From: Chiloscyllium plagiosum
Lineage: Eukaryota
Assembly (NCBI RefSeq): GCF_004010195.1
Contig: NC_057719.1
Span: forward strand, 6,614,517-6,678,516
Length of the DNA: 64,000 nt
Direction: 5' to 3'
Below are positions 14,804 through 62,515 of the stretch, piece after piece. Below the pieces are notes generated by a model. The model was not told where the DNA came from and did no database searches. It worked only from the letters and a program-made list of their open reading frames with translations. Made by a program: the position numbers and the translations under genes. Position 1 is the first letter of the stretch. Each line of letters opens with the position of its first letter.

Positions 14804-15575
14804 AAATGCTTTGCAAGTGCATTGTCAGACAGGGGTTGACATTGAGCCATATAAAGAGCTATTGGGATAGGTCAGGATGGTGTGCGGTTTGGAGGGGTAC
14901 ATGCAGGCGACAGCGTTGCCATAAGTCTGCTGCTCTTACCTTCATGAGCTTGAACAGTCACGGGTTTTGTAAGTGTTGTTGAAAGAGTTGCTGCACTGCA
15001 TTTTACACTGTGCATTGGTGGGAGAGTTGATAATGAAACTATTGTAAAGGGTTAGAGATGCTCAGGGAAAAGAAGACACAGGTTGCATGTGGTTGTTCTG
15101 CTGCCCCAGCATGATTATTTATCCATTCAATAAGTGCTGGTTCTGTTGAAACAGCAGACTGTGAAATTTCATGTGAGAACATCAAGTTCTTGGTAACTGA
15201 ATGCAATACTCATTCCAGATTTGCAGTGGTGCCTTCCTAACAAGATGAAGACACATTCAGAATATAGAGATTATTTTAGTTCATCTGAACAGTAAGAAAT
15301 GCAAAGAGCAATTACTGTCGTGCTGCAATCAGTTTTATTGACTGCTGAAAATATTGCTTCTGTTTGTGAATCATCATTAACATAGAATTCTATCGAGTTC
15401 ACATGGCCGTTGAGGCACAATGATAATGTCCCTATCTCTGAGCCAGAAGATCGGAGTTCAGGTCCTGCCTGCTTCAGAAGTGTGTAACAACATTTCTGAA
15501 CAGGTTGATGAGAAAATAGAAACTGGTCATTCAGCTCAGCTGCTCATTGTCAGTATAAAGTTAAAAATCACACAA

Positions 15576-15610
15576 CACCTGATGAAGGAGCGTCGCTCCG
15601 AAAGCTAGTG
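15576..15610 (+). ncRNA. Minimal type I hammerhead ribozyme motif (family B)
   Basis: cac-CTGATGA-a-GGAGC(gtc)GCTCC-GAAA-GC-TA-gtg. All core nucleotides are present, stem II is perfect, stem I is cac/gtg, and helix III is the palindrome AGCT. Confidence 0.8.
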
Positions 15611-15839
15611 TGCTTCCAATTAAACCTGTTGGACTATAACCTGGTGTTGTGTGATTTTTAACTTTGTACACCAGTCCAACACCAGCATTTCCAAATCATT
15701 GTCAGTATAAATGCGCTGCACCAGCCTCCATCAAACCTGCTTCATTGATCAACTCCTTTCTCCCGCACATCCTTATCTATCTTTCCCCTAAGTGCATGCT
15801 TACAGTTCATCTGATCTGTTCCTGTTGCTATGGTATTCC

Positions 15840-16105
15840 ATCTAGAAGAACAAGGGCTGTAGATATGTGGGAACACCACAAATCCTCCATGCCACTCACC
15901 ATCCTGACTTGGAAATATATATCACCATTCCTTCACTGTCACTGGGTGAAAATCATGGTATACTCTCCCTGATGGCATCGTGGGTCAACCTATAACACAG
16001 TGGTTTAAGAAGGCAGCTCACCCCCACCTTCTCAAGGGCAACTCAGGACAAGTAATAAATGCTGGCCCAGCCAGCGATGCCCATAGTCCATGAGTGAATG
16101 AAGGA
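15840..16105 (+). mobile_element. LINE 3' end fragment (L2/CR1-group, second family)
   Basis: CACTCACCATCCTGACTTGG...AAGAAGGCAGCTCAC...AATAAATGCTGGCC. Also present at about 20720-20975 (+), 28185-28470 (-), 40885-41020 (-) and 49165-49680 (-). Confidence 0.6.
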
Positions 16106-16953
16106 AAAATGGTGGGTTAAGTGGAGACCTGTCAGAGCATAAGGAAGTGATGGGAGGGGAGTGCTGGGAGCCTGTTAAAGTGGGACAACTGCTGTTTTTA
16201 TTTTGTATTCATTCACAGGATGAAGGCGTTGCTGGCTAGACCAGCATTTATTGCCCATCCCTAATTGAGATTGAGAGTAAACCACATTGCTGTGGGTCTG
16301 GAGTCATGTGTAGGCCAGACCAGGTAAGGATGGCAGTTTCCTTCCCTAAAGGTCATTAGTGAACCAGATGGGGTTTTCTGACAATGGATTCACGGTCATC
16401 ATTAGTTTCTTAATTCAAGATTGTTACTGAATTCAAATTCCACCATCTACCGTGGCAGGTTTTGAACCCAGATCCCTGGAACATTACATCTGTCTCTGGA
16501 TTAACAGTCCAACAATAAGACCAGTAGGCCAACCCCTCCCCAGCGTAACTAGTCAGAGCTGTGTGGCAGCCATTGTTCCCTCAGGGTTTGTGACCATATC
16601 CGAGGTCCCGACACCCACTTTGGGAAGCCCTGCCCTAGACAGCCTTTGGGATCCTGATCAGTGTATATTCAGAATGACGGTCATTACATTGCTGGACAGC
16701 AAAGGAGATCAAGGCAAAAAGTGGGAACCGGAGATAGAGGTGTGGTCAACCACAATGGTACTGAATGGCTCAGCAGGGTGGCTAACTCGAGCCTACTTCT
16801 GACATTGTTCACATTGGGATGGACCCATTCTATGATCAGAAACTCCTCATATGGAGTAGATACATGACCACTGACAAGCTGAAGCACATTGCCATGGTAG
16901 CCAATACTCCAGCACCACTCTGTATTACACATACACAAAGGTCATCTACTTAC

Positions 16954-16988
16954 GTGTGATGAGTCCCATAGGCGATCTCCAACTTAGC
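16954..16988 (-). CDS. TDP1: TDP1 coding exon 5 (35 nt), contains the catalytic His of HKN motif 1
   Basis: cag|GCT...AC|gtaagt. Encodes AKLEIAYGTHH(T); human is AKLDIAFGTHHT. Confidence 0.95.
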
Positions 16989-19247
16989 CTGCAAACATTA
17001 AAAATGGCTCAGTTGCACATTTATCAAAATATTGACAAACAAGGCACAATACAACCATCTGAGCACCATTATCTGAAAAGTGTGCAGTTTAATATGAAGA
17101 ATGACAAGTCCCCTAACTTTGCAGAGTTTTTGCCGTGCCAAGCTTGGGAATATTCACCCGACAGGCTCGCTTAGCAACTACCGCTCTACCAACATCACAG
17201 AAACAGGTTACATAAACGAGCACAAGTTTGGGCACTGGTTGGCCATTTGGCCCATTGATCCTGCTCCAACATTTGTCAATATCGGATGAAGGCACCCTCA
17301 ACCCACCTTCCTCCCTTACACCACCCATACTCCGATTCCCTTGTTAGTTAAGGCTCTGTCTTGGAAATATTCAATGTTTCAGGTAGAGATCAATAGATTT
17401 CTAATTATCCCTGGCTTCCAGGACTACGGTGTGAGATAAATAAAAGACATTAAAGTATTTGATCAGCCATACTCATATTGAATGGTAGGGCAGGCTCGAT
17501 GGGCTGAACGGCCCACTCCTGTTCCTCTGTTCCCATCAGTCACGTTTTATATACAGCAGCTTTAATAGAATTAAAATATCCCAAAGTAGCCAGCAGATGT
17601 TATAGAATGTCTTGAAGGCAGATGACGAGTCAAAGAGGTTCAGGGAGGGAATTCCAGAGTTTTGGGAAGAGCTGCTGAAGATCCAATGGGGTAACATTTA
17701 TGATTGGGAACATAAAAGTGGTCATAACTAAAGAAGCACAAATATCTTAGACAATAAGACCGTAAGGAGCCGACCATTTGGCCCTTCTAGCTTGCTCCAC
17801 CACTCAATGGGATCATGGCTGATCCAACATTCCTTAAGTACACTTTCCTGCCTTATCTCCGTAACCCTTGATTCCCCGACTGATCAAGAATCTATCTTAA
17901 GAAAGAACTGCAGATGCTTGAAATCAGAAACAAAAACAGTAATTGCTGGAAAAGCCCAGTAGGTCTGGCAGCATCGGTGGAGAGAAAGCCGAGTTAAGGT
18001 GTTTGGGTTCAGTGACCCTTCTTCAGAATGCTATTTCAGAATCGATCTATGCCAGCCTTAAATATACACAAGGACTCTGCTCCCACAGCTCTCTGTGGTA
18101 AGGAGTTTTAAAACACTCTGAGAGAAGAAGTTCCTCCTTTCTGGTGCCCCTTTATTCCGAGGTCATGCCCTCTGTCCTGGATTGCCCCACGTGGGGAAAC
18201 AACCTCTCAGCAGTTACCCTGTCAGGCCCCTTCAGAATCCTATGTTTTAATTAGATGGTGGTGCAGAGGGTGGTGCATGTATGGAACAAGCTGCCAGAGG
18301 AGATGGTGGAGGCTGGCACAATTACAAAATTTAAAAGGCATCGGAATGGGTACATGAATAGGAAGGGTTTAGAGGCATAGGGGCCAAATGCTGGCAAATG
18401 GGACTAGACTAATTAGGATAACTAGTTGGCATGGACGATTTGCACCAAAGGGTCTGTTTCCGTTCTGTATAACTCTGATTCTAAATCACCTCTAACTTCT
18501 CTAAACTAACTGGGAGGGTTATGGGACAGAGGAGATTACACCGATGAAGCTATACGGGGATTTACAAAGAGGGATGAGAGTTTTAAAATCACACTTGACC
18601 GGGTGCCAAATTTGAGTCAGTGAGCATGGGGCGGCAGATGGTGGAATGGAGCAAGTTAAGACACGGACAGGAGAGTTTTGGGTAATGGAAGAGACATCCT
18701 CAGAAGGGTAGGACGTGTGAGATCAGTCACTGGAATGCATTGGAACACTCAAGCATACATTCACCAGAGTGGACACTCTTGTAGCTTCTCCAACCTCCTC
18801 TCATGACCCAGATACAGGCAGTTACAGATTCATAACAAACAGTAAAAATAAAAAAATTCAGGGAAGAGGTGAGGTTCCCCCTGCAGCGAGTGTTGAACTG
18901 TGGAATGCCCTGTCTGAAAGGGAGATTGATAAACTCCACAGCACATCAGGAAAAGACAGTGGGAGGGTAGGGGGGTTAGGACTGGTTTTTCCTCGATGCA
19001 TGGGGACCTCCTCCTGTGCTGTGCTATTTTAATGATTCACTTTCTTAAAATTTTTCTTGAAATATCTGTACAGTCAACATTTAAAGTAGTTGAAGAATTA
19101 GGGTGTAGCAAATATCAAGAAACTAAAACCATTCAATTTGCCCCAAACAGCTAGCACAGGCCCAAAGGAATAAACGGTCTCTTCCAGTGCTGTATGATTT
19201 TAAGACCTTGAACCATCGGTTAGGTTGCCCTTATTCAAAGGCTCCCC

Positions 19248-20390
19248 ACCACACACACACACTCACACAGGCATCCTCTCAGAGACTTAGACCACTCTAC
19301 ACACACACACACCCTCTCAGAGACTCTACACTCACTCACTCACACACACACACTCACACAAGCATCCTTTCAGAGACTGAGTACACTCTACACTCACACA
19401 CACACACTCACTCACTCACACAGGCATCCTCTCAGAGACTGAGACCACTCTACACTCTCTCTCTCACACACACACACACTCACTCACTCACNNNNNNNNN
19501 NNNNNNNNNNNNNNNNNNNNNNNNNNNNNNNNNNNNNNNNNNNNNNNNNNNNNNNNNNNNNNNNNNNNNNNNNNNNNNNNNNNNNNNNNNNNNNNNNNNN
19601 NNNNNNNNNNNNNNNNNNNNNNNNNNNNNNNNNNNNNNNNNNNNNNNNNNNNNNNNNNNNNNNNNNNNNNNNNNNNNNNNNNNNNNNNNNNNNNNNNNNN
19701 NNNNNNNNNNNNNNNNNNNNNNNNNNNNNNNNNNNNNNNNNNNNNNNNNCAGACACTCACAACCCCCACCCCATACACACACACACTCACACATGCACCC
19801 CCTGACGGACTTAAGACACTTACACTCACATACACATACATATACACTCTCTCTCACATTCACAACCCCCCAACCCAGACAGACAGACACACACACACAA
19901 AGACCCACATGCACACATATACATATACGTTTGTGGGGTGAATTTGTACTTGCAGAGTTACATTGTACTTTGCTCAAAAACTGCATGAATTCATGTAAAA
20001 CTCTGTTATCTCACTTCTTAGATTAGAATCAATCTAAACATCATGGCATAGACAGAGAACACAGGGGGCTAACACCTTCAACATATTAAGTAAAAACAAT
20101 AACTGCAGATGCTGGAAACCAGATTCTGGATTAGTGGTGCTGGAAAAGCACAGCAGTTCAGGCAGCATCCGAGGAGCAGTAAAATCGACGTTTCGGGCAA
20201 AAGCCCTTCAGGAATACCTTCAACATATTGTCTAGCTAACACCAATTGTTACAGTTAACCTGAGAATGCAACTTTTAAAAAAACGTTTTGTGATTTACAC
20301 ATGAAAGAAGTAAAACTATCATGGTATTCGAATAGATGAAAGACTCAACAGGCAATCAATGTATTTTTCAATGTATAATTTCAGTTTAAC
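19248..20390 (+). repeat. CA/CT-rich compound microsatellite region, probably the 3' region of a PLE, with a gap and a nested mini-element
   Basis: (CA)n interspersed with repeated GCATCCTCTCAGAGACT. The 3' end resembles the sequence that precedes the degenerate family B hammerhead at 40500-40620. Confidence 0.55.
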
Positions 20391-22117
20391 TTTGTAGAAA
20401 TAAATGACATTGCTGCAAACTGACATTCACATACAGGTAACAGTGCCCTCCAGTGGAAATATATGGACATTCAGAAAGGAAGATGGAAATTGACACAGCT
20501 GATAGATAGAAGTACTGAGAGGCGTTTTACTGGAATGCAGTGGTATAGTGTACCTGGACTTCGAGAATGCCCTTGAGACGTTACTGCAAAGCAGACAACT
20601 GAAGAATTTACTGAATGCAGGCTATGTATAATTCTAGAAAACCCTCAGTAAGGATATCTGCTCAAAATTAACATAAATGACTTTGGATTTGGCACCAACT
20701 CTAACACTCCCTCCATCACTGACGCTCAGTCGCAGCAGTGTGTGTTATCTACAAGATGCACTTCAGAAATTCACCATTCTGACTTGGGACTATATTGCCT
20801 TCCCTTCACTGTCATTGGATCAAAATCCTGGAAGTCCCTCCCTAAGTGCTTTGTGGGTCTATCTACAGCACATGGACTGCAGCGGTTCAGGAAGGCAGCC
20901 TAGTACCACCTTCCCAAGGGTAATTCAGGATGGCAACCAACAGCATCATCCACTGTGCAAGAATGAATAAAAAAAGATCAACAATAAAGGAACATGCAAA
21001 CTCCATACAGACAGTGGCCCGAGGTGGGAATCGAACCCGGGTCCCTGGTGCAGTGAGGCAGCAGTGCTAACCACTGAGCCACCGTGCCACCCCAGGTGAT
21101 GAGACTTAAATCAGGACAGGGGTGAAAAAGTGGATTAAAAGATGGGTAGAAATGAGAAGAGAGGGTAATTGAAACAATTCCCATAGATTGAGGAGTCAAA
21201 GACATGGTCTAAAAATTAGGGCGAGACTTTGTTGGAGTGAAATTAGGAAACACTCCTTCACACAGACTGAGCAGAAATCTGGGATGGTCGTCAGTACAGA
21301 ATGTTTACGACCATGGCTTTAAATTTCGGGTCTATGCTGGTGGGAGGGTGTTTGTACCTGACAGTAAACCCAGGTGGTTTGATTGTTAGAAGGAAAGGTT
21401 GGATTTTTTTAACTGATAAGAAAGTATTTGTGCTCGGAGGCAACAAAAGCTGTCTCTCAGTTTAGACTCCGAGTCTCCCACAGTCCCAGGAAGGTGCTAA
21501 AGGCACCAGGTTCTGATCTTTACTGATCACAATATAAAATGTAGAAATGATCACAGAATGAGCAATCACTGTTGTATAAATCGTTGCAATTGTTTCAAAG
21601 TCAGTATTCTTGCTCCAGCCCTGAGTGCAAGACCAAATGCTTTTGCAACACACCTCGCTCATCAGCGATTTCCGAGTTCTGTGTTGCCAAGTGATAAACT
21701 GGTGATTTTTCAGGGCATGAGCTTCAGTGACGTGTTTCCAACTGTCACAAACTCTGTAACCAGAGGGCACAGGTTTAAAGGTAAAACAGGGTGGTGCTAT
21801 ACAAATACCTTTCATCAGATGAAAGGTCCTACCCGACTCTCCTGCTCCTCGAATGCTGCCTGACCTGCTGCGTTTTATCCAGCGCCTCACTTTATTGACC
21901 CTGACTCTCCAGCATCTGCAGTCCTCACTATCTGCTAGACAAATACCAACATATACAGACTATACTAAACTACAGAGTAAATATAGGATGAACCACAGGA
22001 GACAGAAAAATCCCTTAATCTTACCTGATAGTCCTTATGGTTTAGTATGTACTCTAAGACTCCCTAACCTCACCTCATATGAAACTCATATGAGGCTCCT
22101 TTCAGTTTCTTCCTTAC

Positions 22118-22214
22118 CTGGCAGAGACGGATGTTGGGATACGGATGTGCATCCTCATGCAGTTCTGCTTTAGACTGACGTTGCTCTCCATGGACAATCA
22201 GTAAAGGCTTTGTC
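22118..22214 (-). CDS. TDP1: TDP1 coding exon 4 (97 nt)
   Basis: cag|G...CAG|gtaagg. Encodes (R)TKPLLIVHGEQRQSKAELHEDAHPYPNIRLCQ. Confidence 0.95.
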
Positions 22215-22289
22215 CTGAAATTCAGCAATTGGAAAGTGAAGATCAATGAAAAGTAACTTTTCCTACTTCATGACGTTTTACTCTTCAGC

Positions 22290-22565
22290 GCCAGCTTTGG
22301 CTCAGCGGACAATGACTTCTCACCCCTGGCTCAGCAGATCAGGGGTTCAAATCCAAGTCCAGATTCTAGAGTCCAAAACAACTATGTTGAGCCTCCCAGG
22401 GTGGATCAGACGAGGTGCTGCATTGTGTGATGTCCAGTGTTTCTGATGAGATACTCAACTCTGCTGACTGTAAAAGATCTCACGATTCTATCCTAAAAGA
22501 AAGCAGGGAAATTCTCCCCTGGCCAATAAGTATCCCTTGGGTAGCATCACTGATTATCTAGTCGT
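22290..22565 (+). mobile_element. Old tRNA-headed SINE (DeuSINE-like)
   Basis: TGGCTCAG A-box and GGTTCAAATCC B-box, followed by a GATGAGAT...GTAAAAGATC...GCAGGG central segment. Related decayed copies at about 40170-40430, 3340-3560 and 23780-24060. The family assignment is tentative. Confidence 0.45.
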
Positions 22566-25239
22566 ATGAACATCGAACTTAGGAGTTGGCCAACAGGCCC
22601 TGGAGCCTGGTCCAACACTTGTTACACTTCATTGGAGCAGTATGCTCGAAATTGAGACCCCATACTCCCAGAGTCAACACAAAATTAAACTTTTTATAAG
22701 ATTGCACAAATTTACCTAGCTTTTAAACTCAGGTTGATAGAAAGCTTGAACTAAGTTTGGATATTTAACAAGAATTACAAATTATTACAATAAAATTAGA
22801 TGGCAGGTTTTGAGAAGATTTGTAGCTCAGGTTGAGGTTCTGGATGTAGGTTTGCTCGCTGAGCTGGAAGGCTCATTTTCAGATATTTTGTCACCATACT
22901 AGGTAACATCTTCAGTGAAACCAGATTGGCTTCATCCAGAGGCTCACTGAAGATATTACCAAGTAGGGTGATGAAACATCTGAAAATGAACCTTCCAGCT
23001 CAGCGAGCAAACCTACATCCAAAAAATTAGATTCTAGCTATGATGTACCATTATGAACCACTGATGTCCAACTGTACTGTCTAACCACCACCACCACACC
23101 ATCCCCCCCTCCCCCGGCCTTATAAAAGTCTCCCTGTCTCACACACAGACGACACATTAAAAACTGGGCATTACAGGTGGAGGGAAAGACTGGGTTGGCA
23201 TTCAATAGTGCCTATCCACAGGAAATTTATCCTTTTAGCTTACTACTCTTTGATTTTCCTCCTCCACTTGTTCGCAGGGGGTGCAGGGAAATTGTTTCAC
23301 AACTAAAACATCGATGACTTATTGTTTAAAGGACACAACTTACAGCAACTGAAAGGGAAAATAAACTGGCTTTCAGGGTGAAGTGTTCTTACTTCAGAGT
23401 TAAGGACTGCTCCTTCCTTAAGGACAGCTCCAACAGCTTCTGACTGAATTTTCATGTCCACAACCTTTTCAGCTACCTGAGAGCTATTCACACAGTTTTT
23501 CATAGTATCCGTCCAGTGCAGCAGCAGGCCATTCAGCCTATCGAGATCACACCAACTTTCTGAAGAGCATCTCACCATTCCCACCCCCACCCTACCCTTA
23601 TAACCCTGGCCAGTTCCCATGGCCAAACCTACACGTCTTTGGACTGTGGGAGGAAACCCACGCAGACACGGGGAGAATGTGCAAACTCCACACAGACAGT
23701 CGTATGAGAGTGGAATTAAATCTGGGTCGATGGCGCTGTGAGGCAGCAGTGCTAACCTCTGAGCCAACGGGCTGCACCATTGTTGGTAGGCAGAAAGCCT
23801 TTGCCGTTTATTGTAGAGATACGCATGATCTAGAACTCCAAGAATAACTCCAATGTTCTTTTATTCTTTTAATCCATCTGAGGGCAAACAAGGCCTCACT
23901 TTCACATCTCATTTCGAAGATCACATGTCTGACAGTGCAGCACTCTCTCAGTACCTCTCAGAACTGCAACAACTTGTGCACATGAAGCAGTCAAAATGCT
24001 TACACCTGGCTGAAAAAAGATCACATACCACACTGCAATAAATCTTGTGCCCTGGCAATGCTGAGGTCTGTAAAGCAAACAAGATCATCGGGGAGAAAGT
24101 GAGGACTGCAGATGCTGGAGATCAGAGCTGAAAATGTGTTGCTGGAAAATGGAAAAGCGCAGCAGGTCAGGCAGCATCCAAGGAGCAGGAGAATCGACGT
24201 TTCAGGCATGAGTTCTTCTTCAGAAAACCTTTTCCAGCAACACATTTTCAGCTCAAACAAGATCATCGGACATCTACAAGGACGGCAGGCAGGCTCCATG
24301 ACGCCTGGCTGAGTATTTGTGAACACTGTAGCAATAGGCAGAGTTACAGCCCCTCAGGAAAAGTGCAGACACTCTGTAATCGTCGTTGGTTTAGTTGCCT
24401 CAACAGAAAGGCAATGGGTAGAAAGTGAGGACTGCAGATGCTGGAGATCAGAGTTGAGAGAGTGGTGCTGGAAAAGCGCAGCAGGTCAGGCAGCATCCGA
24501 GGAACAGGAGAATCAATGTTTCGGGCGTAAGCTCTCCTCCTCCTCCGATGCTGCCTGACCTGCTGTGCTTTTCAACACCACTCTCCCGACTCTGATCTCC
24601 AGCATTTGCAGTCCTCACTTTCTACTAGTTGATTTTAACCTGACTGTGAAGCCTCTTCTAAGGATGCCTACCTTAAAGAAATTCTCCTCCTCTTTCTACA
24701 AGGAAGGATCTTAGTGAGTCCCTCAGTCACTGCACATCACCCCCTCCCCCCAGGTCACCTTCTCTTCCCTGCAGCTTTTCAGCCGTATTCCTGATGAAGG
24801 GCTTGTGCCCGAAACATTGATTCTCCTGCTCCTCAGAAGCTGCCTGATCTGACGTGCTTTTCCAGAAAAGCAACGGGGGGTTTGTTATAGAACATAGAAC
24901 ATTACAGCACAGCACAGGCCCTTCGGCCCTCGATGTTGCACGACCTGTGAAACCAATCTGAAGCCCATCTAATCTACACTATTCCATTTTCATCCATGTG
25001 TCTATCCAATGACTATTTAAAAGCCCCTAAAGTTGGTGAGTCTACTACTGATTCCAGACGATGTTATTATGGTAGGTCAGAGCCTGAACTAAAGTCTGGC
25101 TTGAAAGATCATATTTTCACACCTGGCTTTTGACAAGGTAAGTCTTTTACTAAAACAGAAACACACAATGCTGCAGATTCAGTTTTAACAATAGATCAGA
25201 AATCCATTACACACAAGAAGGTTTGTGGTTCCTTGATGG

Positions 25240-26550
25240 TGGATAGAATAGTGAAGAAGACATTTGGTGTGCTTTCCTTTATTGGTCAGAGCTTCAAGTA
25301 TAGGAGATGGGAGGTCATGTTGCAGCTATTGGTCAGGCACTTTTGGAACATTGTGCGCAATTTTGGTCTCCTTCCTATCGGAAGGATGTTGTGAAACTTC
25401 AAAGACATTTAGAAGGATGTTGCCAGGGTTGGAGCGTTTGAGCTATAGGGAGAGGCTGAATAGGCTAGGACTATTTTCCCCGGAGCGCCAGAGACTGAAG
25501 GGTTACCTCATAGAGGTTTATAAAATCACGAAGGGAATGGACAGGGTAAACAGACAAGGTATTTTCCGATTTTTTTGGGGGGGGAGCGGGAGTGAGCACT
25601 CCAGAACTAGATGGCATAGGGTTAGGGTGAGAGGGGAAAAATTTTAAAGGGACCTAAGAGGCAACCTTTTCACACAGAGGGTGGTACATGAGTGGAATCA
25701 GCTGCCAGAGGAAGTGGTGGAGGCTGGTACAATTACAACATTTAAAAGACATCTGGATGGGTATTTGAATAGGAAGGGTTTAGAGGGATATGGGCCAAGC
25801 GCTGGCAAATGGGACTAGATTAGTTTAGGATATTGGTCGGCATGGATGAGTTGGACCAAAGGGTCTGTTCCCAAGCTGTACATCTCTATGATTCTATAAA
25901 TGAAAATCAATTCATCAATTGAAAAACTGAAAATGAATACAAAATGATCACATATAACACAAGTTTAAAAATGTTGAATCACACAATGGACCACAATCCC
26001 ATGAATCCCAACAGCACTCCTTTACAGTACTCATACCATAGATCATTTACTTCTCTGACATAGGAGGGTTCTTAGGGAGAGTTCAGAAGTGACTGACAAG
26101 GAATAGAGGGTGTGAGTTATCGGGAGAGGCTGGTTAGGTTGGGACGTTTTTCACTGGAGTAAAGGAGGTTGAGGAGTAACCTTATAGAAGTTTATAAAAG
26201 GGTATAGATAAATTGACTAACAAAGATCTTTCCACCAGTTTAGGAGAGTTCAGAAGTAGAGGGCATATTGTTAAGGTAAGGGGAGAAAGGTTTAAAGTAG
26301 AGCCGAGGGGCAAATCTCCATGCAGAGGGTGGTTCACATGTGGAATGAACTGCCAGAGGAAATGGTGGATGCAGGCACAGTTACAACATTTAAAAGACAT
26401 TTGGATAGGTCCATGAATAGGAAATGTTTAGAGGCATACGGGCCAAACACAGGCAAGTGGTACTGGTTTAGTTTGGGAAACTTGGTCCGCATGGATGAGT
26501 TGGACTGATGGTTCTGTTTCTTTGTATGACTCTATGAGTTTATGACTTAA
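25240..26550 (+). mobile_element. Two CR1 3' fragments
   Basis: LSYRERLNRLGLFS and QRVVH.WNELPEE motifs, with ATGACTCT-type tails. Confidence 0.85.
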
Positions 26551-27111: not shown

Positions 27112-27167
27112 CTGAATTCTTCAGGGTACTGCTTTACCAGCCAAGGAATGTCAATGCAGTAATTAAA
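27112..27167 (-). CDS. TDP1: TDP1 coding exon 3 (56 nt)
   Basis: cag|TTT...AG|gtgagt. Encodes FNYCIDIPWLVKQYPEEF(R); human is FNYCFDVDWLVKQYPPEFR. Confidence 0.95.
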
Positions 27168-44990: not shown

Positions 44991-45002
44991 TGGGGATAAA
45001 CA

Positions 45003-53000: not shown

Positions 53001-53250
53001 CCTGCTGCGCTTTTCCAGCAACACATTTTCAGCTCTGATCTCCAGCATCTGCAAGCCCTCACTTTCTCCTATTGACCCATCTGATCAAGATCCTGTTGTA
53101 CTCCAAGGTAACTTTCTTCGCTGTCCACTACACCTCCAAGTCTTGGTGTCATCTGCAAATTTGCTAACCATACCTCTTATGTTAGACTATAACCTGGTGT
53201 CCTGTGACTTCTGACCTTGTCCACCACAGTCCAACATGGGCATGTTCTAA
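50012..53250. mobile_element. Inverted pair of Penelope-like GIY-YIG fragments (about 1 kb arms); right arm interrupted by a CR1 (about 52031-53180)
   Basis: NVVCLIRCRQGCPEARYIGETMQMLQQRMNGH on plus (51229-51480), with the homologous sequence on minus at 50430-51050. Terminal GTCAGAAGTCAC (50012) and GTGACTTCTGAC (about 53204). Confidence 0.8.
52942..52975 (+). ncRNA. Minimal hammerhead ribozyme motif (family A)
   Basis: ttc-CTGAAGA-a-GGGC(tcat)GCCC-GAAA-CG-TC-gat. Confidence 0.75.
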
Positions 53251-53428
53251 AATGGAAGGAAAAGACATTCAAGTTGAACTGTATAGCAACTTGCATTTAT
53301 TTAGGGAAATGTGTCCAGGTTTGAGAACTCTGCAGCTAAAGGAGCTCTTTAAAGTCCAAATTGAGAAAAGCTTTCACGAGTTTTCTTCTTGTTTATTCCC
53401 CGGGACTGTGCTGGCCTCTGGGGACGGT

Positions 53429-53845: not shown

Positions 53846-54468
53846 GCCATTTATTTTACAGAGAATTTGAAAGTGAAACTGCAGCAGAGTGTGCATAGGC
53901 TCCACCCGGTGGCTTTTGTATGCATTTCCTTTCTGACGTTGCATTTATAGTTGGCTCTGAGCACTGGGGTGCAACTCTTGTCTCTGTGGGTAGTAAATAC
54001 AGTACTTTTAAAAACCTGTCCAGGCTCTCTCCTCTAGAGCAGGTGAGATTTGAACACGGCTCTCCTGATTCACAAGCAAGGGCACCGCTGCTCCACCACA
54101 ATCAATATCCCGACCTGACCAATTCCTCAAAGATACATCTGTATCTGAATATGATGAGGAGGTACTGGGGTGGACAGTTTCAGAAGTGGAAAAGCACAGG
54201 TCTTATGAGGAAAGGCTGAGAGACTTGGGTCTGTTCTCATTGGAGAGAAGAAGGCTAAGAGGGTATTTGATCGAGACATACAAGATGGTCAGAGAATTAG
54301 ATAGGAATGATGATATCAGCTTCTACGAGGGGGCATAGCTACAAACTGAGGGGTGATAAATTTAAGACAGATGTCAGAGGCAGGTTCTTTATTCAGAGAG
54401 CGATAAGGGCGTGGAATGCCTTACCTGCCAATGTAGTTAACTCAGCCACATTAGGGACATTTAAACAG

Positions 54469-55725
54469 AACCCCACTGGTCCTCACCTACCACCTCACTA
54501 ACCTCCATGTATCCGCCCTTGAACCCCGCCCCTCCAACCGCCACCAGGACAGAACCCCACTGGTCCTCACCTACCACCCCACTAACCTCCATGTATCTGC
54601 CCTTGAACCCCGCCCCTCCAACCGCCACCAGGACAGAACCCCACTGGTCCTCACCTACCACCCCACTAACCTCCATGTATCCGCCCTTGAACCCCGCCCC
54701 TCCAACCGCCACCAGGACAGAACCCCACTGGTCCTCACCTACCACCCCACTAACCTCCATGTACAGCGCATCATCCGCCGTCATTTCCGCCACCTCCAAA
54801 CGGACCCCACCACCAAGGATATATTTCCCTCCCCTCCCCTACCAGCATTCCGTAAAGACCACTCCCTCCGTGACTCCCCCGTCAGANNNNNNNNNNNNNN
54901 NNNNNNNNNNNNNNNNNNNNNNNNNNNNNNNNNNNNNNNNNNNNNNNNNNNNNNNNNNNNNNNNNNNNNNNNNNNNNNNNNNNNNNNNNNNNNNNNNNNN
55001 NNNNNNNNNNNNNNNNNNNNNNNNNNNNNNNNNNNNNNNNNNNNNNNNNNNNNNNNNNNNNNNNNNNNNNNNNNNNNNNNNNNNNNNNNNNNNNNNNNNN
55101 NNNNNNNNNNNNNNNNNNNNNNNNNNNNNNNNNNNNNNNNNNNNNNNNNNNNNNNNNNNNNNNNNNNNNNNNNNNNNNNNNNNNNNNNNNNNNNNNNNNN
55201 NNNNNNNNNNNNNNNNNNNNNNNNNNNNNNNNNNNNNNNNNNNNNNNNNNNNNNNNNNNNNNNNNNNNNNNNNNNNNNNNNNNNNNNNNNNNNNNNNNNN
55301 NNNNNNNNNNNNNNNNCCTTCATAATTTTATATGTTTATACAAGATCCGCCCCCCTCATTCTTCTGAATTCCAATGACTATAATCCCAGTCTACTCAGCC
55401 TCTCCTCATAAGCCAATCCCCTCAACTCCGGAATCAACCTAGTGAACCTCCTCTGCACCCCCTCCAGTGCCAGTACATCCTTTCTTAATTAAGGAAACTA
55501 AATCTGCACACAGTACTCCAGGTCTGTCCTATCACCCTCACCTTGACCTTTTTCCACCTATCACATTTCCGACGCCCCTCACCCAAGTCCCTCCTCCCTA
55601 TCTTTTATCTTAGCCTGCTGGACAAACTTTCCTCATTCCTGAAGAAGGGCTAATGCCCGAAACGTCGATTCTCCTGTTCCCTAGATGCTGCCTGACCTGC
55701 TGCGCTTCTCCAGCAACACATTTCC
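54469..55725 (+). mobile_element. 5'-truncated Penelope-like element inserted in a CR1, with an 84-bp tandem repeat at its 5' end
   Basis: TSD ACATTTAAACAG at 54457-54468 and 55726-55737. The repeats encode DRTPLVLTYHPTNL, a PLE RT/EN linker-like motif. Hammerhead-bearing terminus at 55630-55725. Confidence 0.82.
55636..55669 (+). ncRNA. Minimal hammerhead ribozyme motif (family A)
   Basis: ttc-CTGAAGA-a-GGGC(taat)GCCC-GAAA-CG-TC-gat. Confidence 0.75.
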
Positions 55726-55859
55726 ACATTTAAACAGTCTTTGGATAAGCACATGGATGATGATGGAATTGTGTAGGGTGGTGGGCTTAGGTCAGTGCAC
55801 AGGTCAGTGCAACATCGAGAGCCAAACAGCCTGTTCTGCGCTGTATTGTTCTATGCTTC

Positions 55860-58170
55860 TGATGCTCCAGGGAAAACAGCCCCAGCCTATTTAATCTCTC
55901 CCTGTAGCTCAAATCCTCCAACCCTGGCAACACCCTTGTAAATCTTTTCTGAACCCTATCACTTTTCACAACATGCTTCCAATAGGAAGGAGACCAGAAG
56001 TGCACACAATATTCTAACAGTGGCCTAACCAATGTCCTTTACAGCTGCAACATGACCTCCCAGCTCCTGTACTCAATGCTCTGACCAATAAAGGAAAGCA
56101 TAGCAAATGCCTTCTTCACTATCCTATCTACCTGCGACTCTACTTTCAAGGAACTACTTTCAACCTGCACTTCAAGGTCTCTTTGTTCAACAACACTCCC
56201 CAAGACCTTACCATTAAGTGTATAAGTCCTGTTAAGATTTGCTTTCCCAAAATGCAGCACCTCTCATTTATTTAAATTAAACTCCATCTGCTACTCCTCA
56301 GCCCATTGGCCATCTGGTCCAGATCCTGTTGTAATCTGAGGTAACCTCCTTTGCTGTCCAGTACACCTTCAATTTTGGTGTCATCTGCAAACTTACTAAC
56401 TATACCCTTACGCTCACATCCAAATCATTTATATAAATGAGGAAAAGTATTGGACGCAACACCGATCCTTGTGGGACTCCACTGGTCACAGGCCTCCAGC
56501 CCTCCACCACCACCCTGACTTGGTGTCAAAATAGAAGGGGGATGCTGAAAGCAGGCAAACTATCCAGTAACTAGTGATAAACTGTAAATGTTAACCTCAC
56601 TGTGCAGCAATATAGAGGCCCCGACTAACATTGCACGTATTGGTTCAATTCTGATTTGGTTAAAACGTGATTCACTCTGGAATTTTAGACTGGCTATGGT
56701 GCCATCAAACTACTATCAATTGTCTTTTTATTTTTTAAAAGTGAAAACATCTGGTTCCCATATGCCCTCCAGAGGGGAAAACAATGTTCCCTTGCCTGAC
56801 CTGGCCTACATGCCAAAAGCCGCCTTCACTGCCCCATCGACCTGTAACTTTACTTCCACAGGACCGTACACTTGAACTCCAAAATCCCTCTGTTCCACTA
56901 AATTCCTTAAGGCCCTACCATTCACCATGAAACTCCTACCCTGATTTGACTTTCTAAAATCCAAGACCTCACACTTATAACTCCATTGCCATTTCTCAGC
57001 CCAGTTCCCCAGCTGATCGAGGTCCTGCTGCAACTTCTGATGACCTTCCTCACTGTCCATGATACCCACCCATTTTAGTGTAATCTGCAAATTTACTAAT
57101 CATGCCTTGTGCATTCTCATCCAACTCATTGATACAAACACCAATAAGTTTGTTACTGGAGTTTTCAAACTCAACACACACAACTTTTTTAATGTTTACC
57201 AATATCAGGATTCTAACTTAGGAAATCTTGGATATTGTTCTCAAGATTTGTGAGGATATAAATAGGAGACTATAACTTTTATACTTGTGCAGTGGACTAG
57301 ATTGAGTGAAGTGTAGGTAGAGTGCTACTTCACCTGGAAGGTGTGTTTGGGCCCTTGGATACAAATTTAAAAATCTGTTTACCTTCCCCTTAAATGTGTT
57401 CAGTGCCCCGGGCCCATTGCACTCTGGGCGAGTGAATTCCGTGAAGAATTCACAAGAATACAAATTCAAGGGCAAAAGCTGCATGAGAGGACAGTGCTGA
57501 TTAGTTGGCTGATCTGACTCCCTGTTTGTATTGCTTTTCAAGACTTATGGTCTGTTCCTGTGGTAGTCTGAGTTTTCTTTGTCTGTTGTAGGTTGAGTGT
57601 TTGAGCTTTGACTGGTTTTGCAGTCAGGTGTGTTTTAATGAGGAAAGATTGAGCAGTTTAGGCCTATACTCACTAATAGGAGGTAAAAACAATGACTGCA
57701 GATGTGGGAAACCAGATTCTGGATTAGTGTTGCTGGAAGAGCACAGCAGTTCAGGGAGCATCCAAGGAGCTTCGAAATCGATGTTTCGGGCAAAAGCCCT
57801 TCATCAGGAGATGAAGGGCTTTTGCCCGAAACGTCGATTTTGAAGCTCCTTGGATGCTGCCTGAACTGCTGTGCTCTTCCAGCACCACTAATCCAGACTC
57901 TATACTCACTAATGTTGAGAAGGATGAGAGGAGATCTAATTGAGATCTTTCAAATGCTAAAGGGGATTAACAAAATGAATGGTTTCCCTGTGGGTTAATC
58001 CAGAAAGAGAGGTCATAATTTGAGGTTAAGAAGTGGCAGATTTTAAAAAAAAAATGAGGAGGAATTACTTCTCTTAAAGGGTTGTGAATTTGTAGAATTC
58101 ACTTGCTTAGAGTGCAATGGGTCCAGGGCACCGAACACATTTAAGGGGAAGGTAAACAGATTTTAAAATT
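55860..58170. mobile_element. CR1 fragments (- 55860-56515, - 56800-57130, + 57630-58170)
   Basis: VRPLLEYCVHFWSP, LHFGKAN...EQRDL and RRMRGDLIE motifs. Further CR1 3' fragments at 48020-48585, 61135-61355 and 63590-64000. Confidence 0.82.
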
Positions 58171-58174
58171 TGTA

Positions 58175-58855
58175 TCCAAGGGCCCAAACACACCTTCCAG
58201 GTGAAGTAGCACTTTACCTGCACTTCACTCAATCTAGTCCACTGCATTCACTGCTCATAATGTGCTCTCCTGTACATTGGGTTCACAGAACACCTATGGT
58301 CTGTCCTCATAAAAGACCCTGAGAGGCTGGTTACCTGCCACTTCAACGCACCACCTTGTTCCCTGATCAACATCCCCATCTCAGACTTGATGCAGTGCTC
58401 CAGTGAAGATCAGTGCAAGCTGGAAGAACGGCACTTAGGTTTCCGCTTGGGAGTTCTAAGGCCTTCTGAACTCAAAGCAAATTCAACAATTTTAGGCTTC
58501 AGTCACCTTCTCACAAGTCCTTACCCCAACTCCACACGGCAGGCCTTATCATATGGTCTGCTGTTACACACAGCCCATTGTTAGCCACTAATAATTCCCA
58601 TTAGCAGCTATTCGTTCTCCTGGGCTGACCATTATCCACTCGTTTTTCTGTACAATTGTTCTTCTGTCTTTAGGCGTTCTCGCCACTATCATTGACTTCC
58701 CACCCCACCTTATTTTCAGCCTTTTCTGAGCTACCATCAATTCTAAGGAAGTCACTGGACCCGAAATGTTAAATCTGATTTCTCTCCACAGTTGCTGCCA
58801 GACTTGCTGAGATTTCTGTTTTTTGTTTCTGATTTCCGCATTGGCAGTTTCTTTT
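58175..58855 (+). mobile_element. Decayed Penelope-like fragment inserted in a CR1
   Basis: GIY-YIG remnant (GPKHTFQV, LLYIG, KLEERHLGFRLG) and a degenerate hammerhead terminus at about 58740-58845. Confidence 0.7.
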
Positions 58856-60139
58856 TTAAATTAGTAATGGGGTGAAAGATTATGGGGAGCAGGTAGGAAA
58901 GTGGAGTTGAGGCCGAGATGAGATTAGCCATGATCATATTAAATGGTGGAGCAGGCTCAAGGGGCTGAATTGCCTGTTCCTGCTCTTTGTTTTTAAGTTT
59001 TTCCTGTCTGATTCTGTCGCAGGTGTTTGGCTACCATCCAGCTGTGAGGCTTTTAAGGTTCTGAGCATTTCTGTACAGTATTTTCGTTCAGATGCTTGGC
59101 ATGTAGTCAAATGCTGCTTGTAAAGCATTTTATTTCCATTAATTCCTATTAACTTAAACAACATCTTTAATTTCTTCATTACATTGGTCACTTCCTTTAC
59201 TGTGTATAAATCATGGAATTGTAGCAACCACGCGATGAGGCCACTTGGCCCATCAAGTAAGTACTATATATGCTGATCCATTCGCCCCATTGTAGAAGGT
59301 CTTCCCGGAAAAAAAATTATAAATGTTTCATATTGCAAGCTCCAGAAGTATTTTTAAATGAATCTCGTGTTCTTCCAACATCCCTCCCCTGTGAAAATCA
59401 AATTGTCTGATCTCCAATCCATTCTTAATTATTGATGGTTTGAATCATTCTCCCGTGTCTTGTTCTTCCAATGTGATCTTTTCATTAACCTTTTAGACAA
59501 TCCCTTAACTCTGTCTTGATGCCTCTGTGAGATAATTTGTTGTTGGGTCCCTCTCTTTCTTCCCAGTTTTCCTCATTGGCCAGACCTGTAATTCTCTGCG
59601 GCAGCCTCTTGCTGCCTTGCTTCCAATCCTTGAAGAACAACCTTGCTTCTGAAACTGGACAAAATTTAAAAGAGTTGCCTTTTCTGCTGTCGTAACCTCA
59701 CAGCCAGTGAAATGGTCACTATCTGCCACATTTCCTATGTGAAAACGATCTGCTGAAAAATCCCACAAAAGAACATTGGCAGAGCAATGAATCATAAAAT
59801 TTATACAGCACAAAAATCAGGCCCTTTGGCCCATCCTGTCTGGGCTGGTCGTCAAGCATGTATCTATTCTAATCACTAATGGCAATGGAGAGAGATTGGG
59901 GGGAAAGTCTTACTAATTGGATATCTTACTTGAAGAACCAGCCCAGAATGAGCTAAATAGCTACCTCCTCTTTTGTATGATCAAGATTCTTGATCAAAAT
60001 ACACCTTCAAAAGGTACCTGGAGCATGAAGCAATCTTTTGATATTTTGGGGGAGGGTTTGTACTGTTTGGATTTCATGTGAGCTGTTTTTACTTGGCTCT
60101 AGTTGAAGATGATTTTGTTTTTCCTTTTAAATAAATCAG

Positions 60140-60235
60140 GTTTTTCGGGAATGTGATTTGGGTCAAAAAGGCTACCTGAGCAGAGAGGACCTCAAGGTTG
60201 CGGTGGTAGCTGCGTTTGGATATAAACCTTCAAAG
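60140..60235 (+). CDS. EFCAB11: EFCAB11 coding exon 2 (96 nt, first EF-hand)
   Basis: Polypyrimidine tract, then cag|GTT...AAG|gtaac. Encodes VFRECDLGQKGYLSREDLKVAVVAAFGYKPSK; human is VFKACDEDHKGYLSREDFKTAVVMLFGYKPSK. Head-to-head synteny with TDP1. Confidence 0.95.
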
Positions 60236-61567
60236 GTAACAGTGCTGCATCCGAATGATTCAGTCAAGCTTGTTTAAACCTGGCTTTAAAATGTCCTACC
60301 AGCTGTGACTCAAAGGATAGCGTTCATGCATCTGCCCCTGGAGGTTGTGGGTTCAAACCCCCAGCCAGGGTCTTGACCATAAAATATCAGGCCAACTCAG
60401 TGCTGATGCCAAGAATGAATCTGTAGGAACTGCTAAACTATCAAATGTAATACCTGTGGAAGGTTGTCACAGGCTGAGTCTTCTCTATTCTCTGTAATTC
60501 AGGACTGATCATGTGCAGTCACTTTTTAAAATCCGTTTTTGCTCCATAATTCCTTGATTGTAGAATCCTTCAGTACAGAAGAGCCCTTTAGCCCATCCAG
60601 TCTGTACTTACATTAGTCCCATTTTTGCTACACTAGGTTCATACCCTCAAATGTTATGACACTTCACGAGTCCATCCAAGTACTCTTTAAGGATTGCGAG
60701 GTTTCCTGCCTCAGCTATATTTCCAGGCATTTCATTTCAGGCCCCCACCACCCTCTGAGTGAAAACATTTTTCCTCAACTCCCCTCTAAGCCTGCTGCCT
60801 TTCACTTTAAAATTATGTTCCTTAGTACTTACCCTTCTACTAATGGGTACAGCTACTTAATAGTCACCTGTCCATCCCCTCATAATGTTATACCCCTCAG
60901 TTAGGTCCCCCCTCAACCTTCTCTGCTCCAAAGTAAAAAAAACTCTAACTTATCCAACCTCTATTCAGCTTCATTGCTGAAATGCTGCAAACCAGGCACC
61001 AGCCTGATGCCCTCCAGTCCGATCACATCCTCCTGACAATGTTATGACCAGAACTGCACACAGTTGGGCCACACGGGTGTCAAGCAATGACCATCTCTAA
61101 CAGATAATCTAGCTATTGCCCCTTGACATTCAAGAGTCATAGAGATGTACAACATGGAAACAGACCCTACGGTCCAACCTTTCCATGCCAACCAGATATC
61201 CCAACCCAATCTAGTCCCACCTGTCAGCACCCGGCCCATATCCCTCCAAACCCTTCCTATTCATATACCCATCCAAATGCCTCTTAAATGTTGCAACTGT
61301 ACCAACCTCCACCACATCCTCTGGCAGGTCATTCCATACATGTACCACCCTCTGTGAATAAAGAAATTATACAGTCACCACGGATACTACATCAGGGAAA
61401 ATCCTTGGCTTGTGCATCAGTTTGATCCACTTCGCAGGAAGACATGCATTCTATTTCTAATAGCACCTATGAGGAAGTGGGGTGTGGATTCACAGGAAAT
61501 TTTGGAGCTTAGGGCTGAGCTGTCTGAAGGCAGACAGTGGTGGAGTGATTTCAAATCAGACTTGTTC

Positions 61568-62515
61568 GAAGTTTGTGAGAAGATTTGTAGCTCGGGTGCT
61601 CGTTGTTGTGGTTCTGTTCGCCAAGCTGGGAATTTGTGTTGCAAACGTTGTAGTGTACAAAAATCCCATGCAAGGACTGCACAAAACACTACATAGGACA
61701 AACAGGAAGACAGCTAATGATCCGCATCCATGAACACCAACTAGCCACAAAACAACACGACCAGCTATCCTTAGTAGCCACACACGCAGATGACAAGCAA
61801 CATGAATTCAACTGGGACGACACTACTATTATAGGACAAGAGCTGAAAATGTGTTGCTGGAAAAGCGCAGCAGGTCAGGCAGCATCCAACGAACAGGAGA
61901 ATCGACGTTTTGGGCATGAGCCCTTCTTCAGGAATGAGGAAAGTGTGCCCAGCAGGCTAAGATAAAAGGTAGGGAGGAGGGACTTGGGGGAGGGGCGTTG
62001 GAAATGCGATAGGTGGAGGGAGGTCAAGGTGAGGGTGATAGGCCGGAGTGGGGGTGGGGCAGAGAGGTCAGGAAGAAGATTGCAGGTTAGGAAGGCGGTG
62101 CTGAGTTCGAGGGATTTGACTGAGACAAGGTGGGGGGAGGGGAAATGAGGAAACTGGAGAAATCTGAGTTCATCCCTTGTGGTTGGAGGGTTCCTAGGCG
62201 GAACATGAGGTGTTCTTCCTCCAGCCGTCGTGTTGCTATGGTCTGGCGATGGAAAGCCTAACCGAGAACAGCCAGGGAATTCCTAGAGGTATGGCACTCA
62301 TCCACAGATTCAATCAATTAGCACATCGATCTGGACCCAATATACTGGCCACTGCAACGGACAGCTAGAACTGACAACCAGAAACGGCAGATACAAATCA
62401 CTACAAATGGTGGAGGAAAGATCACAGAAGCGCTTCACAGGAGGATGTCACCTAGACAGGGGACGAAACGTCTTCAACACAAATTCCCAGCTCGGCGAAC
62501 AGAACCACAACAACA
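61568..62515 (+). mobile_element. Penelope-like fragment with inverted ends and a nested minus-strand PLE fragment (about 61840-62250)
   Basis: VVYKNPC..C.KHYIGQTGR..IRIHEHQLA motif. GTTGTTGTGGTTCTGTTCGCC (about 61601) and GGCGAACAGAACCACAACAAC (about 62494) are inverted termini. Confidence 0.82.

Follow-up and report, generated by a model that had tools for sequence, protein, structure and literature searches.

Minimal PLE hammerhead motifs across a shark TDP1 locus: probable 3′ ends (pseudo-LTRs) of decayed insertions

Lunse et al. are said to have described dimer cleavage by hammerheads. The closest described relatives of the motifs considered here are the minimal hammerheads (min-HHRs) that, in the parts of PMC4209133 available to us, are reported from fish Xena, Poseidon and Neptune elements. 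According to the same parts of that source, minimal motifs of Penelope-like elements (PLEs) do not cleave as monomers and cleave little as dimers, and coelacanth and Xenopus carry 4,000-9,000 motifs per genome (PMC4209133). What the ribozyme contributes to PLE transposition is treated as an open question in the accessible portions of PMC8557442 and PMC11167929. Our literature search for hammerheads in sharks, with most subscription papers outside its range, returned no paper on them.

We analysed a window of 64,000 nucleotides from the shark Chiloscyllium plagiosum (contig NC_057719.1, forward strand, 6,614,517 to 6,678,516), in which a sequence-only reading had proposed a dense, intronic population of minimal hammerheads in at least three co-varying families. 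We conclude that these motifs are very probably the hammerhead-carrying 3′ ends (pseudo-LTRs) of decayed PLE insertions scattered across the TDP1 locus, with a parent RNA that was likely cut only with the help of a second copy or an element protein, and with most copies predicted to be inactive.

Census and anatomy of the hammerhead motifs

A strict pattern (CTGAnGA, one spare base, a stem II of at least 3 pairs, then GAAA) matched the window nine times, at 15579+, 22947+, 24791+, 33596+, 38945+, 42561-, 52945+, 55639+ and 57807-, where each number is the position of core nucleotide C3. This corresponds to 9 strict matches per 62.6 kb; 50 first-order shuffles averaged 0.54 matches and never exceeded 2. 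Family profiles seeded on the nine matches (E<=0.05), which recover their seeds by construction, returned 28 copies in the window: 16 in family A, 7 in B and 5 in C. The proposed density of hammerhead motifs on both strands is confirmed by these two counts. The profiles also recovered all the decayed sites that the sequence-only reading had picked out (2839-, 20214-, 52932-, 61931-, 40590+ and 32571-), and its description of the loops, the length of stem II and the ACGT or AGCT helix III is accurate. Its suspicion that the families had gone unannotated holds as far as Rfam is concerned: in a scan of the window at E<=5, none of 15 matches belonged to a hammerhead family; the miRNA-like Rfam matches are the fold-backs described below.

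The invariant core was scored as C3, U4, G5, A6, G8 and A9, then G12, A13, A14 and A15.1, then U16.1 and H17. Helices and core were checked in 24 of the 28 profile matches, leaving out four without most of the core, and core states of four irregular copies and of 58743 and 62438 were taken from a separate core tabulation. The core with a valid cleavage base is retained in 11 of 28 copies, with all three families represented, and six of the 28 (15579, 32571, 33596, 38945, 52945 and 55639) keep core, stem II, helix III palindrome and first stem I pair together. Every one of the 11 core-intact copies has the spare base between 9 and 10.1. Their 10.1-11.1 pair is G-C in eight, G-U in two and A-U in one, and the 15.2-16.2 palindrome (ACGT or AGCT) is present in eight, the remaining three having changed CG to CA. 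Stem I measures 3-5 bp in families B and C; in family A it has 2 bp and then a U-U mismatch, and stem II has 4 bp.

By eye, the profile alignments divide the three families into about nine subfamilies. The claim of co-variation holds between families and among the C subfamilies; within subfamilies no compensatory change was seen. Stem differences between families preserve pairing, in too few lineages for a covariation test, and we would attribute them to descent from different PLE lineages with a selected ribozyme, not to host selection on the inserted copies. In four of the five family C copies, A9-U-G10.1 reads ATG and the frame stays open through the arm (44 codons for 33596); the fifth has ATA. 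A search for full-length proteins beginning with the family C peptide had one candidate, and none at E<=10, which says little in either direction.

Coding remnants and insertion marks

The link to PLE termini that the sequence-only reading had drawn is borne out by target duplications, by tails and inverted arms, and by remnants of RT thumb and GIY-YIG next to the motifs. An RT followed by a C-terminal GIY-YIG lies upstream of the ribozyme in families C and B; for family A the evidence of this arrangement is weaker.

Two stretches, 33457-32492 and 61660-62515, are matched by Poseidon-type proteins, and both alignments reach into the family C motifs. The first alignment falls in an inverted Poseidon-type PLE (32491..33720, both strands), whose RT thumb and GIY-YIG remnant (33457-32558, minus) ends in hammerhead 32571 and whose opposite arm carries hammerhead 33596 (predicted cut 33629/33630). 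The second is a GIY-YIG remnant of subfamily C3 (61654..62519, plus) that ends in a decayed hammerhead at ~62439-62475 and is interrupted by a family A insertion. A Zn linker motif is absent in all three family C relatives, fitting the Penelope/Poseidon clade; together with the protein matches and an ORF start at stem II, this points to a probable Penelope/Poseidon type for family C.

Upstream of family B motifs, both arms of an inverted Neptune-type PLE (50011..52035, both strands) are matched over 50511-51598 by proteins that combine a Cx5CxxC linker with GIY-YIG. Its linker and GIY-YIG remnants lie at 51058-50511 (minus) and 51058-51598 (plus), and ~400 nt past each is a decayed B1 hammerhead (C3 50091 minus, 51990 plus). 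The Zn-finger-like CX2-5CxxC linker precedes GIY-YIG in two of four relatives examined (P0167 and P0161), is mutated in the window's family B copy and was not seen for family A. A further RT-thumb remnant, Neptune-like and containing a tandem repeat (54455..54886, plus), is cut by an assembly gap. For family A, endonuclease remnants precede the motifs at 58190-58500 (E 6e-6) and 62245-62162 (E 5e-4). The former belongs to a Neptune-like GIY-YIG remnant found by tblastn (58190..58826, plus), followed by a decayed A3 hammerhead (58731-58826). The latter is part of an A1 3′ end that lies within the Poseidon remnant (61840..62254, minus), which comprises an endonuclease C-terminus, a 3′ UTR and hammerhead 61931 (G12>A); here the A1-endonuclease link is a weak tblastn match to a Neptune-like protein. 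Families A and B are putatively Neptune-type by protein matches, and may instead be Nematis. Within this window, subfamilies A2, B2 and C2 have no coding remnant alongside, and we found no full-length element, which in EN+ PLEs would show direct pseudo-LTRs around a complete ORF and an intron in the pseudo-LTR.

Target duplications of 10-17 bp flank 7 of the 13 units tested; the other six have none. In family A they border an A1 insertion lying antisense in TDP1 intron 1 (38929..39069, plus; intact motif 38945, predicted cut 38972/38973; 12 bp, 38921-38932 / 39075-39086); an A1 fold-back (52837..53069, both strands; minus 52932 with G12>A, plus 52945 intact but sequestered; 17 bp, 52826-52842 / 53068-53084); an A2 fold-back with a 4-nt loop (57680..57901, both strands; minus 57807 with its palindrome lost, plus copy lacking C3-U4; 14 bp, 57664-57677 / 57900-57913); an A2 copy with three core bases deleted (20090..20216, minus; 14 bp, 20074-20087 / 20216-20229); and an insertion with intact core at 24223, a broken stem II and a 25-nt inverted arm (24092..24254, minus; 16 bp, 24076-24091 / 24254-24269). 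In family B they border a B2 insertion made of a 27-nt inverted arm, the intact minimal hammerhead 15579 (predicted cut 15607/15608) and a tail (15553..15699, plus; 16 bp, 15544-15559 / 15696-15711), and in family C a C2 fold-back (22805..23024, both strands; minus 22915 with G12>A, plus 22947 with its helix III palindrome lost; 10 bp, 22792-22801 / 23023-23032). The 5′ junction lies within ~27 nt of C3 in all seven, mostly within 7 nt. The density of the motifs and this clustering of 5′ junctions at the ribozyme edge are still worth noting.

The family A copies further include an A1 3′ end (55528..55726, plus; intact motif 55639, predicted cut 55666/55667), a fold-back in which neither arm has the C3-A9 core (24407..24636, both strands), a core-intact copy with its helix III palindrome lost by CG>CA (24787..24868, plus; C3 24791), and decayed copies at 2762..2851 (minus; G8>A, G12>A, palindrome lost), 17940..18038 (minus; A3, G12>A) and 21804..21888 (plus; internal deletion). 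Family B adds a B2 copy (40434..40656, both strands; 40590 with G12>A, inverted tail piece 40434-40480), a tail without a hammerhead core (53167..53251, plus) and a B1 fold-back (42433..42653, both strands), in which minus 42561 has an intact core and a broken first stem I pair and the plus copy is truncated in the core; at its junction, other family copies have the core intact in 125 reads. Capture of MRPL51 between A copies 52945 and 55639 was considered and rejected: 52945 has its own target duplication, and the DNA between is unrelated repeat.

Half of the copies stand in inverted pairs. Tails are ~33 nt in family A and ~40 nt in B, family A has two fixed arm ends ~33 nt apart, and its 3′ end at 39069 (A1) is sharp, with mixed flanks in 591 reads. 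Many copies are near-equal in size and consist only of ribozyme and tail. Such short copies could be non-autonomous, self-propagating mini-elements, retrozyme-like or fold-back, that use the ribozyme to make their own circular RNA, and the available part of 10.64898/2026.07.22.740005 proposes that animal retrozymes derive from PLE pseudo-LTRs. We consider such an origin very unlikely: no head-to-tail array occurs among the 28 profile matches and close neighbours are inverted; every fold-back has a junction of its own (spacers of 4, 6, 22 and 25 nt), fitting separate truncations rather than one master; and the copies cross the scissile bond, unlike a cut monomer.

For the pseudo-LTR ends of these decayed insertions, the following sequence of events may be proposed. 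The parent PLE would be transcribed through tandem pseudo-LTRs, and RT would start downstream of the ribozyme at either of two sites separated by ~33-40 nt, giving the long and short arm ends. Its template would be uncut RNA, read through the scissile bond, and it would often halt or turn back within a few bases of the ribozyme 5′ edge, leaving 130-230-bp stumps or fold-backs; 5′ junctions often coincide with a short hairpin that the core forms naturally. Inserted copies would then become methylated and decay. In none of seven arm pairs of the fold-backs did we find the one-sided A/G excess of an A-to-G editing scar. It is conceivable, if unlikely, that the hammerhead fold is the main stop or turn-back point of Penelope RT in these sharks, so that the ribozyme shapes insertions without cutting. 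If so, a genome may hold perhaps hundreds of thousands of near-intact ribozyme stumps, and sense copies would be dense enough for a measurable cleavage load on introns.

Decay, predicted folding and host transcription

Catalytic G12 has changed to A in 7 of 28 copies, the CG of 15.2-16.2 to CA, TG or TA in 7 of 28, and C11.1 to T in 4 of 28; CpG o/e across the window is 0.31. CpG sites fall on C11.1-G12 and on 15.2-16.2, which would explain the early loss of both catalysis and dimer palindrome. In subfamily A1 (six copies, little power), changes affect 3/90 core and 14/398 non-core positions (Fisher p=1); outside CpG the counts are 0/66 and 13/374, and with more copies this trend might prove to be genuine constraint. 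The sequence-only reading had foreseen a very large ribozyme repertoire inside introns and had named a lack of excess core conservation as grounds for refuting it. Such a lack is what we see within the window, at low power, and a working repertoire is not supported, given equal core and flank change in A1, mutation of G12 in a quarter of the copies and a core intact in only 11.

In a +/-150-nt context, stem II has probability 0 in all four short fold-back copies with intact core (22947, 42561, 52945 and 57807), and 32571 loses stem II as well. In minimal context the predicted probability of stem I is 0.5-0.9 for 15579, 32571 and 33596, and <0.2 for family A. In cofolding, with tertiary structure outside the model, the double hammerhead was not the lowest-energy state in any of four cases. 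If there is plus-strand transcription at copy 55639, whose stem II is predicted free, that copy is the strongest candidate for activity. The majority of copies are either broken or, by prediction, caught in hairpins, and the motifs are likely passengers in decay rather than ribozymes at work for the host.

The 5′ part of TDP1 occupies 3098..40078 on the minus strand, with coding exons near 40078-39957 (in a relative's model), 36341-35655, 28822-28772, 27176-27111, 22219-22112, 17021-16953, 12864-12772 and 3286-3098; a contig aligns to one of them at 35675-36331, with both its ends unaligned. On the plus strand, an exon with AG/GT borders at 60140..60235 matches Pfam EF-hand at E 0.002, below the cut-off, and is presumably EFCAB11, by human synteny with TDP1. 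The proposed intronic location stands for 1-40 kb, which are TDP1 introns, and for 40-64 kb we only infer it. Fourteen of the 28 profile matches fall in TDP1 introns, and of the 11 core-intact copies 7 are antisense to the host transcript, whether known or presumed.

These positions bear on whether a minority of intact sense copies cut host pre-mRNA, through trans dimers, PLE protein or chaperones, with mildly harmful or tolerated effects, so that selection thins the copies and does not conserve them. Three of the six fully kept copies are sense: 32571 in TDP1, and 52945 and 55639 in the presumed EF-hand gene, the latter two on the same strand, of the same subfamily and 2.7 kb apart. Antisense orientation of 7 of 9 strict matches (one-sided p=0.09, two-sided p=0.18, not significant) is as expected if sense copies cut and are purged, and poly(A) reads contain much family A sequence, with a bin depth of ~317, similar to SINE bins. 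We nevertheless regard such cutting as improbable. Copy 52945 appears locked in its fold-back and 32571 is predicted to lack stem II in context; the 2-bp stem I of family A has a predicted probability near 0 in 55639; matches in TDP1 introns are split 7 and 7 between strands; and published minimal PLE motifs are inactive as monomers and low as dimers (PMC4209133) or protein-dependent (PMC11167929), as far as the available parts of these sources report. No read-end pile-up was found at 33629, 38972 or 42533 in 6531 aligned poly(A) single-cell reads, which are a poor test of 5′-OH products. The only pile-up, of 6 molecules at 42468, lies away from the predicted cut sites.

The concentration of half of all matches in the introns of at least one gene, and the domesticated type I motifs that the available part of PMC6155905 describes from amniote introns, might also suggest that the host has adopted the motifs as an intronic regulatory repertoire. 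This is extremely improbable, as catalytic positions have changed as often as flanks, the insertion marks are fresh, the form is minimal rather than canonical, and most intact copies face away from the transcript.

Comparison with known systems

The domesticated amniote intronic hammerheads have canonical helices; the shark copies are minimal, with no excess core conservation among those in the window. Non-LTR retrozymes, in the available part of 10.64898/2026.07.22.740005, share the type I hammerhead, a PLE pseudo-LTR origin and a presence in one chondrichthyan genome, but are defined by head-to-tail tandem units, which are absent among our 28 matches. The Anolis Poseidon PAc (Frangieh et al. 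2024, PMC11167929, in part) has an ATG at the stem II start, as in family C; it is intact, was assayed and cleaves only with its own protein, whereas the shark copies are fragments known from sequence.

Adineta Penelopes (PMC3846280) and the general EN+ PLE scheme (PMC8557442), as far as the available parts of these sources describe them, share with the shark loci an inverted 5′-truncated pseudo-LTR, an optional 30-40-bp tail, target duplications, palindromes at inverted junctions read as self-priming, and a pseudo-LTR that covers the first ORF codons. The duplications are 10-17 bp here and 8-10 bp in Adineta and, unlike Adineta Penelopes, most shark insertions contain no coding sequence (PMC3846280). 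Hammerhead scans of shark genomes can be expected to return very many PLE stumps. Short, datable and target-duplicated, such insertions are good material for locating the RT stop relative to the ribozyme, and for asking whether cut RNA is ever a template and whether introns lose intact sense copies through purging.

The closest match is the type I min-HHR of pseudo-LTRs in metazoan PLEs (Cervera and De la Pena 2014, PMC4209133). Its core, spare base between 9 and 10.1, G10.1-C11.1 pair and palindromic 15.2-16.2 without loop 3 are the same here, as are several families per genome, mostly solo copies and opposite-strand motifs 100-700 bp apart, all according to the available parts of PMC4209133; its short stem I may have a counterpart in the 3-5 bp of families B and C and the 2 bp of A. 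Schistosoma families in that source have a stem II of 7-8 bp and a stem I of 4-5 bp, compared with 4 and 2 bp in shark family A. Sharks are not named among the hosts in the available parts of its text and one supplementary table, and the density seen here, if genome-wide, would lie far above the coelacanth and Xenopus counts (PMC4209133). Taken together, the motifs are the minimal PLE hammerhead as the available parts of PMC4209133 define it, and they add shark families to a known class.

Hammerhead census and host genes

The strict core plus stem II pattern occurs at 9 sites in the window, against a mean of 0.54 and a maximum of 2 in 50 shuffles. When one mismatch was permitted, the same pattern gave 22 sites against 8.1 in shuffles. 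Family profiles, built from the 9 strict sites that seed the resulting set, yielded 28 matches (16 in family A, 7 in B and 5 in C), and the coordinates, loops and palindromes listed in the sequence-only reading were all found. An Rfam search of the window at E<=5 did not return any hammerhead model among its matches.

Introns of TDP1 contain 14 of the 28 matches. The gene was recognized from a 750-bp ORF (35646-36395) with 93% identity to the Chiloscyllium punctatum protein, a match that places the host among the bamboo/epaulette-type sharks, and TDP1 exons extend on the minus strand from ~40078 to 3098. On the plus strand, an EF-hand exon with AG/GT borders (60140-60235) is one that we take to be EFCAB11, from human synteny with TDP1. 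The 40-60 kb region is presumably intronic to this EF-hand gene. A CpG island at the 5′ end of TDP1 (39500-40250) is likely a promoter common to both genes; short contigs align at 39417-39673 and 39951-40189. An intact, intronless ORF for MRPL51 (mitochondrial ribosomal protein mL51; 53429-53845, minus strand; Pfam E 3.5e-36) has its own CpG island (53251-54000), and its protein has an exact match in public sets and clusters with Hemiscyllium and Chiloscyllium mL51. The human MRPL51 gene has introns; the shark ORF is probably a functional retrogene and may lie antisense within the EF-hand gene. The window also holds many LINE remnants, presumably of CR1 type, and short SINE copies (4388-5816, 7337-10238, 37992-38309 and elsewhere), with an RT match at 9369-10238 and poly(A) tails in reads at a SINE end near 38291-38309.

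Penelope-like elements carrying the motifs

A link between the motifs and the ends of Penelope-like elements (PLEs), already drawn in the sequence-only reading, was borne out by RT and endonuclease remnants, inverted arms, tails and target duplications. Family C lies 3′ of Poseidon-type RT-thumb and GIY-YIG sequences (33457-32558, minus; 61660-62447, plus), family B lies 3′ of GIY-YIG remnants in both arms of an inverted element (50011-52035), and family A lies 3′ of endonuclease remnants whose matches are weaker than those of B and C (58190-58500 and 62245-62162). Relatives of the family B remnants have a cysteine linker, as described for Neptune elements in PMC8557442. Exact flanking repeats of 10-17 bp were present in 7 of 13 units tested, the remaining 6 having only 5-6 bp. 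Seven inverted pairs comprise 14 of the 28 matches, three further matches have a short inverted tail, and arms end at two fixed points, spaced ~33 nt in family A and ~40 nt in family B. The family A 3′ end is marked at 39069, where 591 reads of one raw-read run pass from a copy of this family into differing flanking sequences. These insertions match the plan published for PLEs, in which an inverted, truncated pseudo-LTR (the hammerhead-bearing end) is accompanied by a tail and a target duplication (PMC3846280, PMC8557442). The motifs in the window are of PLE origin and were inserted independently.

Several further features were seen in these elements. At 61654-62519, one PLE sits within another: the 3′ end of a family A (Neptune-like) element interrupts a Poseidon endonuclease remnant that runs the other way. 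Beside an assembly gap, at 54470-54770, a 99-nt in-frame segment of a Neptune-like RT thumb is repeated ~3 times head to tail, which may be an assembly artefact. Subfamily A1 has a pyrimidine run ending in AG ~25 nt upstream of core base C3 (55600-55613, plus; 61957-61970, minus) that resembles a 3′ splice site; introns of Drosophila PLE pseudo-LTRs are reported to end near helix I (PMC4209133).

Decay, stem pairing and predicted folding

Every invariant base is kept in 11 of the 28 copies; in 6 of these, the palindrome, stem II and the first pair of stem I are preserved as well. CpG-type damage took the form of G12>A (7/28), altered 15.2-16.2 (7/28) and C11.1>T (4/28); the CpG o/e of the window is 0.31. 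Six A1 copies showed changes at 3/90 core sites versus 14/398 elsewhere (p=1). With six copies this test is weak, and some constraint on the A1 core is possible, because all three core changes fall at CpG and non-CpG sites changed at 0/66 in the core versus 13/374 elsewhere.

The families had also been described as co-varying. Their stems do vary yet keep their pairing. Families A and B have G-C at 1.1-2.1, where C has U-A; at 10.3-11.3, subfamilies 1, 2 and 3 of C carry U-A, U-G and C-G, respectively; and 15.2-16.2 is either C-G or G-C. These paired differences fit ribozyme selection in the parent lineages, although three families are too few to carry a covariation statistic and the C stem is also coding. 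In 4 of the 5 family C copies, A9-U-G10.1 reads ATG and starts a frame that remains open across the arm, resembling the Anolis Poseidon ORF, which is described as beginning at stem II (PMC11167929). Because a protein search found none starting with the family C peptide, we infer an ORF start at its stem II only by analogy.

Folding was predicted for the core-intact copies with 150 nt on either side. In this context, stem II probability was 0.84-1.0 for the copies at 15579, 24791, 33596, 38945 and 55639 (named by C3) and 0 for the four that lie in short fold-backs of paired inverted copies (22947, 42561, 52945, 57807), and stem I probability was <0.3 in all 11 core-intact copies. Seven of these 11, and 7 of the 9 strict sites (one-sided p=0.09), are antisense to a known or presumed host transcript; 55639 is the only copy that is sense, complete and predicted to be free. 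Read-end pile-ups were absent at 33629, 38972 and 42533 in 6531 reads, a weak test that drew on ~2% of a poly(A) single-cell run. Ends piled up at one site alone, 42468, within the tail of family B (six molecules; minus-strand B1 copy, 42433-42510), which may represent the terminus of a family RNA or an RT start site. With 6/28 copies complete, core changes at 3/90 versus 14/398 in a weak test, and fold-back stem II probability at 0, a large, functional intronic ribozyme repertoire is unsupported.

Proposed insertion route and relation to known hammerheads

Motif copies continue across the scissile bond, with sequence retained on either side. According to PMC4209133, minimal PLE motifs are inactive as monomers and cut slowly as dimers; PMC11167929 describes an Anolis motif that cleaves only with its protein, in an element whose main insertion substrate is uncut RNA. 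We propose that parent elements would be transcribed through tandem ends, and that RT would start at one of two downstream sites, pass the uncut ribozyme and often halt or turn back at its 5′ edge. For 57807 and 42561, folding prediction gives a natural hairpin of 4-5 bp over the core start, from which synthesis of the inverted arm could be primed; PMC3846280 proposed self-priming at palindromes of this kind. The 5′ junctions of 7/7 target-duplicated insertions lie <= ~27 nt from C3, most <=7 nt, in a search biased toward short, ribozyme-bearing copies. An exception is the arm at 24533, which begins near the cut site.

Strict sites occur at 9 per 62.6 kb. If this density were typical, a genome that we take to be 3-4 Gb would hold about half a million, an extrapolation from one window that cannot establish such a number. 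Against it stand the 4,000-9,000 hammerheads reported for coelacanth and Xenopus with a different descriptor (PMC4209133). Our literature search found no paper on shark PLE hammerheads; a 2026 preprint describes retrozymes in one chondrichthyan genome (10.64898/2026.07.22.740005). In all three families an extra base follows A9, G10.1 pairs with C11.1 and a palindrome replaces helix III, and in these marks the families agree with the minimal PLE hammerheads as described in PMC4209133. The shark motifs are new members of this already known class.
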